A stretch of 44,851 nt of DNA, from positions 1 through 44,851 of IMG/VR virus record IMGVR_UViG_2974654489_000001; one strand, 5' to 3'. The notes below the pieces were generated by a model. It was not told the origin of the DNA. It saw only the letters and a list, made by a program, of their open reading frames with translations, and ran no database searches. Shown here piece by piece: positions 39,248-40,983 of the stretch (positions are counted from its first letter, which is position 1; every line of letters begins with the position of its first letter). Source of the DNA: a virus (taxonomy: Duplodnaviria; Heunggongvirae; Uroviricota; Caudoviricetes). Position numbers and translations under genes: made by a program.

Positions 39248-39445
39248 ATGGGCCAGTGGATTAAGTGTAGTGAGCGGATGCCAGGTGATTTTGAAGATGT
39301 GCTGGTTTCAGATGGGGTTAACGTTGAGGTGATGTGGCGGGACTGCGACGGTTTCTGGGATTCTTGGGCGCCACGTAACTCAAACATCGATACCGACGAT
39401 GTAACCCATTGGGCGCCGTTACCCGAGCCGCCATCGCTGGTGTAA
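39248..39445 (+). CDS. Hypothetical protein
   Basis: 65 aa, RBS AAGGGG. Confidence 0.5.
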   Translation: MGQWIKCSERMPGDFEDVLVSDGVNVEVMWRDCDGFWDSWAPRNSNIDTDDVTHWAPLPEPPSLV

Positions 39446-39490: not shown

Positions 39491-39529
39491 TACGCTGCTA
39501 CACAGCAGCGTATCATTTTTCTCATTTTT
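39491..39529 (+). terminator. Intrinsic terminator (TACGCTGCT-ACAC-AGCAGCGTA + T tracts)
   Basis: Perfect 9-bp stem followed by TCATTTTTCTCATTTTT. Confidence 0.7.
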
Positions 39530-39582: not shown

Positions 39583-39813
39583 ATGAAACTAACGAAACGA
39601 CAGGCAGAGACCCTACAGGAAATAGCAAACGGCAGAACTATGCTCAGGGGCAGGTTCGACCGTTACTGGTGGCAAGATTCTGATGAGCTATGCACTATGG
39701 TCGCCAGACGCCTCCGTAGCAAAGGGCTTATTAGAACTGTGTATCTCAGCGCCACTCGTGATGTGGTTCAGATAACTGTAGCGGGTGAAAGCGAGTTACT
39801 AAAACACCAATAA
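39583..39813 (+). CDS. Hypothetical protein
   Basis: 76 aa; RBS GCAGGAG. Confidence 0.55.
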   Translation: MKLTKRQAETLQEIANGRTMLRGRFDRYWWQDSDELCTMVARRLRSKGLIRTVYLSATRDVVQITVAGESELLKHQ

Positions 39814-39880: not shown

Positions 39881-40057
39881 ATGTTTTATTACAAAGACGC
39901 TACCGTGGAAGAGATGAAAAATGCGCATGAAGCCCTGGGTTTTCCGTTAGTGTGTGACGGGGATGCAAAAATCGTTTGGGTAGACGATTCTATCTGGCTA
40001 GGACCTATTTTAGACAGAGCATCTAATGCTTATTCTAAGGAGTTAGAAGATGAGTAA
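39881..40057 (+). CDS. Hypothetical small protein (58 aa)
   Basis: Strong RBS GAGAGGAGAGA; below ORF track cutoff. Confidence 0.45.
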   Translation: MFYYKDATVEEMKNAHEALGFPLVCDGDAKIVWVDDSIWLGPILDRASNAYSKELEDE

Positions 40058-40601
40058 CAAACACGAAGTATTCGAGTACCTGATTGACCAACTACGGCAG
40101 CAGGTAAATAACAACCAGTGCGAAGACCTGGCGCATGAGGTGCTGTCACTCAAGAATCAGTTACGTGACGCGTCGGCGCTGGTGGCTGAGTTACAGGGCG
40201 ACAACATTAAGAAATCTGAGCACATATCGCACCTGACAGGGCGAGTTAAGGAGTTACATATGGCATTGGCTGCCGCTGCCGGTGACGTGGAGGCGTACAA
40301 ACTTATCCGCGGACAGGAGCAATCTGGTTGTCGCAAAGAAGACGCTCAGGAATGCAAACACGATTGGTACTTTTACGATAAAGGTGCGTCGATGGCGTGC
40401 AAGAAATGCGGGTTAAAGAGCCCTGGCCGTCAAAAAGAAGATGCGCAGGAATGCTACCATAACTGGCAATTCGTTAATGGTAAGGCTCCTGCCGTATGTG
40501 TTAATTGCGGCGTGACTAAATCAAGCGAGTGTGAGCACGATTGGGAATATTATTACCCCAACGGGAGGCGTTGTACCAAATGCGGGCTGGTAAACTTATG
40601 A
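40050..40601 (+). CDS. Coiled-coil protein with three tandem zinc-ribbon-like repeats
   Basis: Three repeats of (E/Q)EC-x-H-x-W...C-x-x-CG (QECKHDW..CKKCG; QECYHNW..CVNCG; SECEHDW..CTKCG), also visible as nucleotide repeats. Confidence 0.6.
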   Translation: MSNKHEVFEYLIDQLRQQVNNNQCEDLAHEVLSLKNQLRDASALVAELQGDNIKKSEHISHLTGRVKELHMALAAAAGDVEAYKLIRGQEQSGCRKEDAQECKHDWYFYDKGASMACKKCGLKSPGRQKEDAQECYHNWQFVNGKAPAVCVNCGVTKSSECEHDWEYYYPNGRRCTKCGLVNL

Positions 40602-40801
40602 CCAGCATCTTATTCATCTGGGTACTGTCCGCGGGCCATATGCACCTGACGGCAACAGAAACGTTTTACTCGATGGAGGCGTGCCAGTCCGCAGCACGCG
40701 CCGCAGAGAACGCACACTTCTTGTTCCATGGCGACAAGCCCAACGATTCAGAGGTACGTGCTATCTGCTCACCCAAGCGACTTGGTAAACAGGAGAGATA
40801 A
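40598..40801 (+). CDS. Small membrane protein
   Basis: ATGA overlap; N-terminal hydrophobic segment SILFIWVLSAG. Confidence 0.45.
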   Translation: MTSILFIWVLSAGHMHLTATETFYSMEACQSAARAAENAHFLFHGDKPNDSEVRAICSPKRLGKQER

Positions 40802-40803
40802 TT

Positions 40804-40983
40804 ATGGTACAGAGATACGAAAACGACCACGGGGATATGTTTCAGGTCACGGAAGGGCGCTGGGTGCTATACGAAGATTACGCGAAACTTGAAGCAGAGT
40901 TACAGAAATACAAAGACCAGTTCCATGATTACGTCGAGTGCGCGAACTGCGGGTCAGTTACACATGTGGAGGGGGTGGAGTGA
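40804..40983 (+). CDS. Hypothetical protein (59 aa)
   Basis: RBS AGGAGA; C-terminal CANCG. Confidence 0.45.
   Translation: MVQRYENDHGDMFQVTEGRWVLYEDYAKLEAELQKYKDQFHDYVECANCGSVTHVEGVE

Follow-up and report, generated by a model that had tools for sequence, protein, structure and literature searches.

The lambda protein Ea22 is described as built from a short N-terminal part, a tetrameric coiled coil and a C-terminal domain that varies from one phage to another (PMC10834534). Members of the DksA/TraR family, among them lambda Orf73, have a coiled coil and a zinc finger and bind RNA polymerase. The hypothetical proteins of Guernseyvirinae phages grouped as phrog_6094 (Kagunavirus and Jerseyvirus, with Golestan gp60, K1ind2 and Salmonella phage ST3 as examples) have the same N-terminal domain, the same EQSGCRKED motif and the same genome position as the protein considered in this work, but many of them have one or two Cys/His modules in place of three, modules of other types, or a non-zinc C-terminal domain. 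The layout of the Ead/Ea22-like proteins of lambdoid phages and their setting in an accessory region are also shared, a likeness of layout only (PMC10834534).

The window, that is, the whole stretch of 44,851 nucleotides that was analysed, is the complete genome of Raoultella phage RP180, a Kagunavirus-like siphophage, and its open reading frame at 40050-40601 is gp51: in the homology search the encoded 183-aa protein was 100% identical to the hypothetical protein HOV38_gp51 of Raoultella phage RP180. The gene and the signals read within or next to it are as follows.

40037..40042, plus strand: ribosome-binding site AAGGAG, 7 nt 5' of the ATG, read from the sequence
40050..40601, plus strand: coding sequence of the 183-aa protein RP180 gp51, taken from the ORF list, stop codon included
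40178..40185, plus strand: Chi octamer GCTGGTGG, codons for ALVA, within the gp51 gene

Chi octamers occur 8 times in the window, all on the plus strand, against 1.13 expected, and the copy listed above, inside gp51, is one of these. A scan for a gene-specific promoter or terminator gave nothing above shuffle expectation.

The protein is a clear member of PHROG 6094 (phrog_6094), a family without assigned function, whose profile it matches at E=2e-54 (184 bits; residues 1-124 against positions 1-108 of the 142 in the profile, in two stretches). The original prediction, made from the sequence alone, had recognised no family; this holds for the curated Pfam, NCBIfam, PADLOC and PDB collections and fails for phrog_6094. 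Pfam and NCBIfam gave nothing significant beyond sub-threshold coiled-coil or knuckle noise, the PADLOC defence models gave no family at E<=0.1, and PDB sequences gave no significant match, the generic xxCxxCG knuckle alone being aligned. The BFVD structure search returned sequence-related family members and unnamed small phage proteins, with no characterised protein among them, and we found no functional information in the literature on RP180, Kagunavirus, Guernseyvirinae/Jerseyvirinae, Jerseyvirus transcriptomes or zinc-ribbon coiled-coil anti-defence proteins. The homology search gave 1311 clusters of homologues, and homologues are present in 275 phage records, nearly all of them Salmonella or Escherichia Guernseyvirinae. 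The family as seen here is almost confined to Guernseyvirinae-type siphophages, with a few records named for other hosts. Just two matches were obtained in 185,579 bacterial and archaeal species genomes, and bacterial chromosomal relatives were rejected since both contigs are colinear with RP180. The gene is syntenic in Kagunavirus genomes, and Golestan gp60 and WQN07595 of KMB36 occupy the gp51 position, 5' of a gene for a 67-aa protein and of the lysis genes.

The part of gp51 that precedes its Cys/His modules falls into three segments.

40050..40109, plus strand: aa 1-20, MSNK-EVFEYLIDQLRQQV, the most conserved part of the family, with near-invariant alignment columns
40119..40319, plus strand: heptad-repeat, coiled-coil-like helical stalk, aa 24-90, placed by predicted helices and heptad register
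40317..40343, plus strand: EQSGCRKED, aa 90-98, the junction motif that joins the stalk to the C-terminal cassette array

The N-terminal 45 or so residues are near-invariant across the family, and in the region that encodes aa 1-20, which AlphaFold2 predicts to be helical from residue 4 to residue 20, the major allele reaches a frequency of 0.94 at third codon positions. Optional cassettes found in relatives sit after the LRQQ of this segment. The coiled coil that the original prediction placed at the N-terminus is consistent with the sequence, as AlphaFold2 predicts helices at 24-63, 66-77 and 80-90, and a single heptad register through aa 24-90 has 15 of its 20 a/d positions occupied by hydrophobic residues, a number reached in 16 of 5000 shuffles. 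Matches to coiled-coil Pfam families are weak. The length of the stalk varies within the family, and a deletion of 21 aa (three heptads) in relatives preserves the heptad register. The EQSGCRKED motif, with 30 instances across 36 viral loci plus the window, is the point at which every C-terminal array begins, and throughout the family it bounds the variable region on the left. Its candidacy as a dedicated site of recombination at the DNA level was rejected: third-position conservation is 0.79, compared with 0.94 and 0.88 in the N-terminal region, and the 14-mer recurs in the rest of the genome no more often than expected by chance.

Behind this junction stand three modules, which are the sole matches to C-x-H-x-W-x(9-10)-C-x-x-C-G in all six frames of the window.

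40353..40412, plus strand: module A, aa 102-121, CKHDWYFYDKGASMACKKCG, putative ligands C102, H104, C117 and C120
40452..40511, plus strand: module B, aa 135-154, CYHNWQFVNGKAPAVCVNCG, putative ligands C135, H137, C150 and C153
40530..40586, plus strand: module C, aa 161-179, CEHDWEYYYPNGRRCTKCG, putative ligands C161, H163, C175 and C178

The tandem repeats proposed earlier stand up to alignment statistics, and the three modules are real and far beyond chance. BLOSUM62 local scores are 84 for A/B, 70 for A/C and 50 for B/C against a shuffle mean of about 19 (sd about 4), with none of 5000 shuffles reaching the observed score in any of the three pairs; when the C-terminal 91 aa were shuffled 200,000 times, the motif appeared once in 2 of the shuffles and three times in none. 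Details of the pattern had to be revised. EDAQEC precedes the first two modules as described, but the third is preceded by SSEC; the spacing from Trp to the next Cys is 10, 10 and 9 residues in A, B and C rather than 5-7; and in place of uniform units of about 22 aa there are periods of 33 and 26 aa around a core of 19-20 aa. AlphaFold2 places a beta-hairpin between the C-x-H and the C-x-x-C of each module, with predicted strands at 106-109 and 114-117 (A), 139-142 and 145-150 (B), and 165-168 and 172-175 (C). Mean pLDDT is modest (61.7 for full-length gp51 and 66.5 for the C-terminal part), and the linkers are of low confidence and the BC pair is better defined, with module B at 68-77 and module C at 77-80 in the model of the C-terminal part.

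Across 234 modules from 131 proteins of the family, the Cys, His, Cys, Cys ligands are about 99% invariant: the first ligand is Cys in 231, the Trp is kept in 228 and the Gly after CxxC in 232, while the loop is variable in sequence and ranges from 8 to 25 residues. One member (P0023) has Arg in place of Cys at the first ligand. On the strength of this invariance, and of the position of the ligands at the two ends of the predicted hairpin, we infer that the modules bind metal and are small, probably zinc-binding hairpins. The picture of three tandem zinc ribbons on a coiled coil is thus retained for a helical part followed by three hairpin-like Cys/His modules and given up for the classical ribbon, since the first ligand pair is C-x-H in all three gp51 modules and in 231 of the 234 family modules, and the second CxxC (or CPxCG) knuckle of a classical zinc ribbon was not found in them. 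No profile or fold match to classical zinc ribbons (Pfam Zn_Ribbon_TF, DZR and relatives) was above threshold, and a profile made from 17 module sequences aligned with PDB entries only through its xxCxxCG half, which matched the zinc knuckles of Zn-ribbon proteins weakly, with a best E of 0.008.

The C-terminal arrays of the family hold from none to three modules and sometimes non-zinc domains, and mosaic inserts also occur; the best 120 homologues display 37 arrangements of about 20 module types, of which BC is the commonest (31 of 120). The A+B+C arrangement of RP180 is absent from the other 119 and from the 36 viral loci. One segment accounts for the difference from the BC type.

40344..40442, plus strand: 99-nt cassette of module A and linker, AQECKHDWYFYDKGASMACKKCGLKSPGRQKED, absent from BC-type relatives

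Relative to a BC-type relative (L042, P0002), this cassette is an exact in-frame indel, bounded by the repeated linker (direct repeat D1), in genes that are 89.1% identical in nucleotides before it and 95.6% after it. The linker, KEDxQEC-x-H-x-W, precedes many different module types across the family. Counterparts of at least 80% identity were found among the modules of the other 119 best homologues for all three modules (21 for A, 61 for B and 35 for C), A-type modules of other phages have a nucleotide identity of 82-88%, and identity within a type is far above identity between types. Modules A, B and C are therefore three of about 20 long-diverged types that are exchanged as cassettes at conserved linkers. 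Of the 106 phage records in which the A type occurs, 95 are Salmonella phages, and RP180 gp51 looks like the commonest E. coli-phage type (BC) to which one 99-nt A cassette typical of Salmonella phages has been added. Module types show a host-genus bias, which may merely mirror phage phylogeny (Jerseyvirus versus Kagunavirus). Silent donor cassettes in the RP180 genome were rejected, as a search for them gave no further motif match in any of the six frames.

Our best guess, which we put forward tentatively and a little short of an even chance, is that gp51 is an oligomeric accessory protein whose swappable zinc hairpins serve multivalent binding to variable host targets. The proposed molecule would run from the near-invariant N-terminus through the heptad-repeat helical stalk and EQSGCRKED to the three C-x-H...C-x-x-C modules, each of them a beta-hairpin of two strands in which a single zinc ion, bound by Cys, His, Cys and Cys, most likely closes the open end, with module A on a flexible linker and B and C as a tighter pair. 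The stalk may oligomerise, and several zinc hairpins would therefore be displayed together. The invariant N-terminus would touch a partner that does not change, whether a part of the phage or a conserved part of the host, and the exchangeable, aromatic-rich hairpins would be the binding units for host targets that vary, so that gp51 might be a multivalent binder with a role in host takeover or counter-defence. Many accessory regions of phages show cassette shuffling, which alone is no proof of an arms race.

The alternative that deserves the most attention, though we consider it unlikely, is a regulator that binds nucleic acid, in which the coiled coil would make the protein a dimer, DNA or RNA would be read by the tandem zinc modules with each adding specificity, as in tandem zinc-finger arrays, and cassette exchange would re-target the protein. 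Nucleic acids are frequent ligands of small zinc-knuckle and zinc-ribbon modules, the weak profile matches are all to Zn-ribbon RNA-binding and ribosomal proteins, GATA and PRDM9 fingers, and one metagenome source names a homologue a 'predicted nucleic acid-binding Zn-ribbon protein'; however, these profile matches are all non-significant and cover the generic CxxCG knuckle alone. The C-terminal part is slightly basic (pI 8.07, charge +1.9) and the N-terminal part acidic, but this charge is far below that of typical nucleic-acid-binding ribbons; the mild basicity is by itself decisive for neither protein nor nucleic-acid binding. Moreover, no repeated DNA motif is tied to the gp51 gene, and some members, such as Golestan gp60, have just a beta-rich non-zinc domain in place of the zinc modules, so a function shared by the family cannot rest on contacts of zinc modules with DNA.

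Immediately downstream lies a small gene that bears on a further reading.

40598..40801, plus strand: 67-aa ORF downstream of gp51, phrog_3766 (function unknown), E=3.9e-35

Its start overlaps the gp51 stop codon (ATGA). A full-length copy directly follows the gp51 homologue in 33 of the 36 viral loci, with 73-94% aa identity (85-94% in all loci but one); only a fragment is present in L002 and L016, and the gene is absent from L004. It is a conserved partner of gp51 and the right boundary of the variable region. Together with this translationally coupled protein, whose N-terminus is hydrophobic and which contains two Cys, gp51 could have a function tied to the envelope, for instance in the timing of lysis or in superinfection exclusion, with gp51 as the cytoplasmic partner. 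The overlap, the constant adjacency and the position of the gene pair upstream of the holin and endolysin genes agree with this reading, which we nevertheless hold to be improbable: small phage genes that are unrelated often lie side by side and overlap, neither protein belongs to an annotated family, and the hydrophobic stretch is short. The two genes also differ in their mode of variation, the 67-aa protein being highly conserved and gp51 a mosaic; at a threshold of at least 85% identity the 37 gp51 loci fall into 30 clusters, while the downstream gene is 85-94% identical in nearly all loci.

The truncated or degenerate alleles (L002 and KMB36, and P0023 with its altered ligand) suggest that gp51 is accessory and dispensable in character. 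Taken further, alleles with no module, with a truncated or frameshifted one or with a lost first ligand, and an N-terminus much more conserved than the rest, could mean that the C-terminal array has no specific function and is a recombination hot spot holding neutral cassette debris behind a functional N-terminal coiled-coil protein. We give this only a slender chance, as the ligands are conserved to about 99% in the 234 modules and each module type is held at 80-100% identity in many phages, which argues for selection on the modules. Recent tandem duplication inside the gp51 gene, as first proposed, is scarcely credible: a 49-nt direct repeat (73% identity, 99-nt spacing) is indeed present, and the nucleotide-level mirroring is borne out by 26 identical bases of 33 between the strings at 40335 and 40434, but the similarity is due to the conserved linker and is limited to linker and ligand residues, the cores have diverged (A and B share 40% of aa and 47% of nt, B and C 7 of 27 aa), near-identical counterparts of each module exist in many other phages, and the A cassette is either there or missing as a whole in a gene that is otherwise 89-96% identical.

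If the favoured reading of gp51 as a multivalent binder is extended, the roughly 20 zinc-hairpin types might form a shared, exchangeable recognition library, from which lytic enterobacterial siphophages would make varied combinations on a constant coiled-coil scaffold. Host factors that vary between strains, defence proteins for example, would be neutralised or hijacked in this way, an intracellular counterpart of the swapping of tail-fibre tips, and the module would be a new short CHCC zinc-binding fold, present in tandem in other proteins of phages and bacteria too. We regard this extension as doubtful. If the zinc hairpins are discrete binding units, the gp51 family would be a case of natural combinatorial module exchange in a small phage protein, and modules of 20 aa on a coiled coil would provide a compact scaffold on which to study the re-targeting of phage accessory proteins, with possible use in the engineering of binders. 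Phages of the Guernseyvirinae find wide use in therapy and biocontrol directed at Salmonella and E. coli, and a hypervariable accessory gene could be part of the reason why phages that are otherwise near-identical differ in plating efficiency; if gp51 has no phenotype, it would be another mosaic gene without assigned function. The C-x-H-x-W...C-x-x-C-G module itself has no match in Pfam-A or among solved PDB chains and occurs in tandem in unrelated proteins too, so its definition as a family would be a small yet genuine addition.

These unrelated proteins were obtained by exhaustive phmmer at E values from 6e-11 to 1e-5. Some are small proteins made solely of tandem C-x-H-x-W...C-x-x-C-G modules (P0141, P0158 and P0156), and others are secreted proteins (P0128-P0131, P0139 and P0142) with 24-aa repeats of the form G-H-x-W-x-x-A-T-C-T-x-P-x-T-C-x-x-C-G, a signal-peptide-like N-terminus and, in one, a dockerin; in the secreted group an extra Cys in the middle of the loop replaces the Cys before His. 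They differ from gp51 in that they have neither a coiled coil nor EQSGCRKED, and the likeness is one of motif, which may be due to homology or to convergence.

DksA/TraR proteins have a coiled-coil hairpin, which is antiparallel, and a single C4 finger (CxxC-x17-CxxC), whereas in the gp51 family one to three CHCC hairpins follow a continuous heptad stalk of variable length; the CxxC-x17-CxxC motif is absent from gp51, which has no Pfam match to DksA/TraR. The two resemble each other as small phage or plasmid proteins that combine a coiled coil with a Cys-rich zinc site, putative in the case of gp51 (PMC9239242). With lambda Ea22, gp51 has no sequence similarity (BLASTP E=3.2), and no Ead/Ea22-like NCBIfam or Pfam entry is matched. 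The Ea22 C-terminal domain is a mixed alpha-beta dimer and, unlike that of gp51, has no zinc modules (PMC10834534). Temperate phages use Ea22 in their lysogeny decision, whereas Guernseyvirinae are described as lytic.

The classical zinc ribbons and knuckles (TFIIB/TFIIS/RPA12, the archaeal Zn-ribbon RNA-binding protein, eL37, eL40 and the rubredoxin knuckle) likewise have a beta-hairpin that ends in xxCxxCG, and they are the sole, weak profile and fold matches of gp51, from which they differ in that gp51 has C-x-H as first ligand pair, an invariant Trp, no second CxxC and two predicted strands. The tandem C2H2 arrays of eukaryotes (for example PRDM9 and KRAB-ZNF) resemble gp51 as strings of small, independent zinc modules that change fast in number and order from one relative to the next, and PRDM9 gives a weak match confined to the knuckle. 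However, C2H2 modules have a beta-beta-alpha fold and another ligand order, and their arrays bind DNA; and PRDM9 changes in a minisatellite-like manner, whereas gp51 changes by the exchange of cassettes between phages.

In this analysis, we demonstrate the layout of gp51, the exchange of cassettes within it, its pattern of conservation and its restriction to one phage group. The translated ORF is 100% identical to 'hypothetical protein HOV38_gp51 [Raoultella phage RP180]', and Kagunavirus genomes (Guernseyvirinae; Golestan, KMB36 and G AB-2017 among them) are 88-91% identical to the last 15 kb of the window. The gene lies in a run of small plus-strand ORFs which begins past a divergent regulatory region, including a minus-strand HTH protein, and which extends as far as the holin and endolysin genes.

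Features at and around gp51
39491-39512, plus strand: terminator-like hairpin, a 9-bp stem followed by a T run, adjoining the 3' end of the DUF551 ORF 39248-39445
39583-39813, plus strand: 76-aa ORF
39881-40057, plus strand: 58-aa ORF
40050-40601, plus strand: gp51 coding sequence, 183 aa, with an AAGGAG site (read from the sequence) 7 nt 5' of the ATG
Residues 102-121 of gp51: module A, fitting C-x-H-x-W-x(9-10)-C-x-x-C-G
Residues 135-154 of gp51: module B, fitting the same pattern
Residues 161-179 of gp51: module C, fitting the same pattern
40598-40801, plus strand: 67-aa ORF of phrog_3766 (unknown function), hydrophobic over a short N-terminal stretch and containing two Cys, its start overlapping the gp51 stop codon as ATGA
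40804-40983, plus strand: 59-aa ORF, carrying a single CxxC and weakly matching phrog_3592, the Lar-like restriction-alleviation PHROG (E=1.5e-4)

The module pattern occurs nowhere else in the genome when all six frames are scanned, and it almost never arises in composition-matched shuffles. The tandem repeats are supported by BLOSUM62 local scores of 84 (A/B), 70 (A/C) and 50 (B/C), against a shuffle mean of about 19 (sd about 4), with 0 of 5000 shuffles reaching the score for any pair. The mirroring at the nucleotide level claimed in the original prediction is borne out by the two strings quoted there, at 40335 and 40434, which share 26 of 33 bases; a repeat finder returns a 49-nt direct repeat, 73% identical, with copies 99 nt apart. 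Helices are predicted at residues 4-20, 24-63, 66-77 and 80-90, and with a single heptad register 15 of the 20 a/d positions over residues 24-90 are hydrophobic (equalled by 16 of 5000 shuffles), in agreement with the proposed N-terminal coiled coil. Because motif, repeat statistics, predicted helices and heptad register concur, the original observation holds with its details corrected: the Trp-to-Cys spacing is 9-10 residues rather than 5-7, successive modules repeat at 33 and 26 aa rather than ~22, and EDAQEC, given as part of every module, precedes only the first two.

That the modules were born by recent tandem duplication inside the gp51 gene, as the nucleotide repeat had seemed to indicate, is contradicted by the evidence and hardly credible. 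The modules resemble one another in the linker and putative ligands alone: the cores of A and B have 40% aa identity and 47% nt identity, and 7 of 27 residues agree between B and C. In the 119 other best homologues, counterparts at least 80% identical number 21 for A, 61 for B and 35 for C, several copies of B and C being 100% identical, and the A-type modules of other phages have 82-88% nt identity to A. The clearest evidence against recent duplication is the alignment with the related viral locus L042, which encodes a two-module BC protein (P0002, 150 aa). The gp51 gene differs from it by one exact in-frame 99-nt indel (40344-40442), with 89.1% identity 5' of the indel and 95.6% 3' of it; the indel codes for AQECKHDWYFYDKGASMACKKCGLKSPGRQKED, that is, module A and its linker, and both of its borders read AAAGAAGA(C/T) on one side and GC(T/G)CAGGAATGC on the other. 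From the module counterparts and this linker-bounded indel, gp51 therefore looks like a BC-type gene that has acquired an A cassette, or else A was lost in the relative. Either event looks like recombination within the repeated linker, and the nucleotide repeat noticed originally is that linker.

Similarity to L042 breaks off sharply upstream, ending exactly at the gp51 start codon, with 24% of bases matching 5' of it. The 76-aa and 58-aa ORFs just 5' of gp51 have no PHROG or Pfam match, and their counterparts are absent from all 36 related viral loci. The hairpin at 39491-39512 may divide the small-ORF run into two transcription units, in a scan where the number of terminator-like sites was not above shuffle expectation. 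The E. coli Chi octamer GCTGGTGG occurs in 8 copies, all on the plus strand (2283, 3936, 7022, 17044, 17200, 20738, 36615 and 40178, the last inside gp51), against 1.13 +/- 1.02 expected and a maximum of 5 in 100 shuffles. Over-representation in a single orientation suggests selection on these sites, for instance to shield a linear genome against RecBCD entry at one end.

gp51 is a clear member of phrog_6094 (unknown function; E=2e-54), with 1311 homologue clusters at E<=1e-3 and 275 matching phage records, nearly all of them Salmonella or Escherichia phages of the Guernseyvirinae-like group. A scan of 185,579 bacterial and archaeal species (one genome each) returned two loci only, both colinear with RP180, and these are phage contigs lying within bacterial assemblies. 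The N-terminal ~45 aa of the family are near-invariant, third codon positions included; the stalk varies in relatives by optional inserts following LRQQ or by a 21-aa (three-heptad) deletion preserving the register, and EQSGCRKED marks the conserved junction where the variable C-terminal array begins. Proteins among the best 120 homologues hold 0-3 modules, which a crude 50%-identity clustering of loops sorts into about 20 sequence types; at least 37 arrangements of them exist, led by BC (31), BE (17), A alone (13) and IJ (9), with ABC found in gp51 only. Arrays can also hold long-loop modules, a C4-type module or beta-rich non-zinc domains (W-x-x-W-x-G-G-x-C-P-V-P...), one of which stands alone, without a zinc module, in Golestan gp60 (L001 10361-10813). 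These non-zinc cassettes of ~60 aa replace or adjoin zinc modules (loci L001, L008, L015, L018, L019, L024 and L026; proteins P0015 and P0053), read W-x-x-W-x-G-G-x-C-P-V-P...D-I-x-x-Y-R or Y-N-A-W-R-P-H-Y-G..., and have no Pfam match. Of the 106 phage records with A-type modules, 95 are Salmonella phages; BC is present in 24, mostly Escherichia or Kagunavirus. This host bias may merely reflect the Jerseyvirus/Kagunavirus split.

Clustered at >=85% identity, the window and the 36 viral loci form 30 groups. By contrast, directly after the gp51 homologue, 33 of the 36 loci keep a full-length copy of the 67-aa gene; these copies are 73-94% identical to that of the window, with 85-94% in every locus except one, and the gene is thus far more conserved than gp51. 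The locus is therefore a recombination hot spot adjoining a conserved gene. Since truncated, frameshifted and ligand-mutated alleles exist in the family, some phages can do without the gene, or without its array at least. The KMB36 homologue (L039 9865-10311) ends in an apparently frameshifted, degenerate zinc module (...IDTHRNVNMTIVWFCGVATYSSALNAG), which suggests that its last cassette is decaying. At another related locus (L004 2501-3115), a gp51 homologue ending in a C4-type module is fused to the C-terminus of the 59-aa ORF's homologue (...CDNCGSVTHVEGVE).

We infer that the modules are zinc sites. Across 234 modules from 131 family proteins (130 distinct sequences, loop length 8-25 residues), Cys stands two residues before the His in 231, Trp fills the aromatic position in 228, and CxxC is followed by Gly in 232. 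Exactly four invariant potential ligands on a variable background classically mark a structural metal site. AlphaFold2 models, which are metal-free and of modest overall confidence, give each module a two-stranded hairpin with C-x-H just before strand 1 and C-x-x-C just after strand 2, so that the four ligands would lie at its open end. When the C-terminal 91 aa are modelled alone, B, C and their short linker have pLDDT 68-80, module A 62-65, and the junction and A-B linker <50, which suggests that A sits on a flexible tether and that BC form a tighter pair. Reading gp51 as a coiled coil with zinc modules attached is reasonable.

Searched exhaustively with phmmer against 1.84 billion representative proteins, the same 91 aa gave 81 matches, comprising gp51 family members and two further groups. 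The first (P0141, 140 aa; P0158, 188 aa; P0156, 270 aa) consists of metagenomic proteins made almost wholly of 3-6 tandem C-x-H-x-W...C-x-x-C-G modules without a coiled coil, and the module is thus present beyond the Guernseyvirinae family. Members of the second (P0128-P0131, P0139, P0142, P0167, P0180 and P0190) combine an N-terminus resembling a signal peptide with 24-aa repeats, G-H-x-W-x-x-A-T-C-T-x-P-x-T-C-x-x-C-G, in up to about ten copies; a dockerin domain is present in one. Pfam returns for them only partial matches, covering positions 1-19 of the C1_1 domain, and the repeats appear to be an unnamed Cys/His repeat class.

It is possible that the heptad stalk oligomerises and displays several zinc-stabilised, aromatic-rich hairpins on flexible linkers, in which case the invariant N-terminus would touch a constant partner and the exchangeable hairpins would bind variable targets. 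This pattern resembles the constant anchor and swappable heads of tail-fibre tips and Ea22, and together with dispensability and the position among small accessory genes it makes a host-takeover or counter-defence binder the best fit. As the evidence is circumstantial, we advance the whole statement tentatively; its functional part alone is doubtful. A nucleic-acid-binding regulator is unlikely, given family members without zinc modules and a positive charge that is low (pI 8.07). That gp51 shares a function with the coupled 67-aa protein is improbable, and a functionally neutral variable tail is quite improbable, as ligands and each module type are strongly conserved.

No significant match to gp51 was found in Pfam, NCBIfam or PADLOC, and no solved relative by PDB sequence search. 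Against solved zinc-ribbon proteins, the module profile finds the generic xxCxxCG knuckle only (best E=0.008; archaeal Zn-ribbon RNA-binding protein, eL37, eL40, rubredoxin, GATA and PRDM9), and nothing matches the C-x-H-x-W half. The description of the modules as zinc-ribbon-like is thus apt for the second half, but the two-knuckle feature that defines classical ribbons is absent; this CHCC module is missing from Pfam-A and has no relative among solved PDB structures. DksA/TraR-type proteins have a single C4 finger and gave no match to gp51 in the Pfam scan. According to PMC9239242, they combine a coiled coil with a zinc finger, as in our reading of gp51. In layout, the nearest characterised analogue is lambda Ea22, for which PMC10834534 describes a coiled coil that forms tetramers, preceded by a short N-terminal part and followed by a C-terminal domain differing between phages. 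Ea22 has no sequence similarity to gp51 (E=3.2), and it differs in belonging to temperate phages and in having a C-terminal domain without zinc modules. gp51 is a variation on known kinds of thing, namely zinc-knuckle repeats and mosaic phage accessory proteins, in a large family, phrog_6094, which is notable for the cassette-like shuffling of a short CHCC module.
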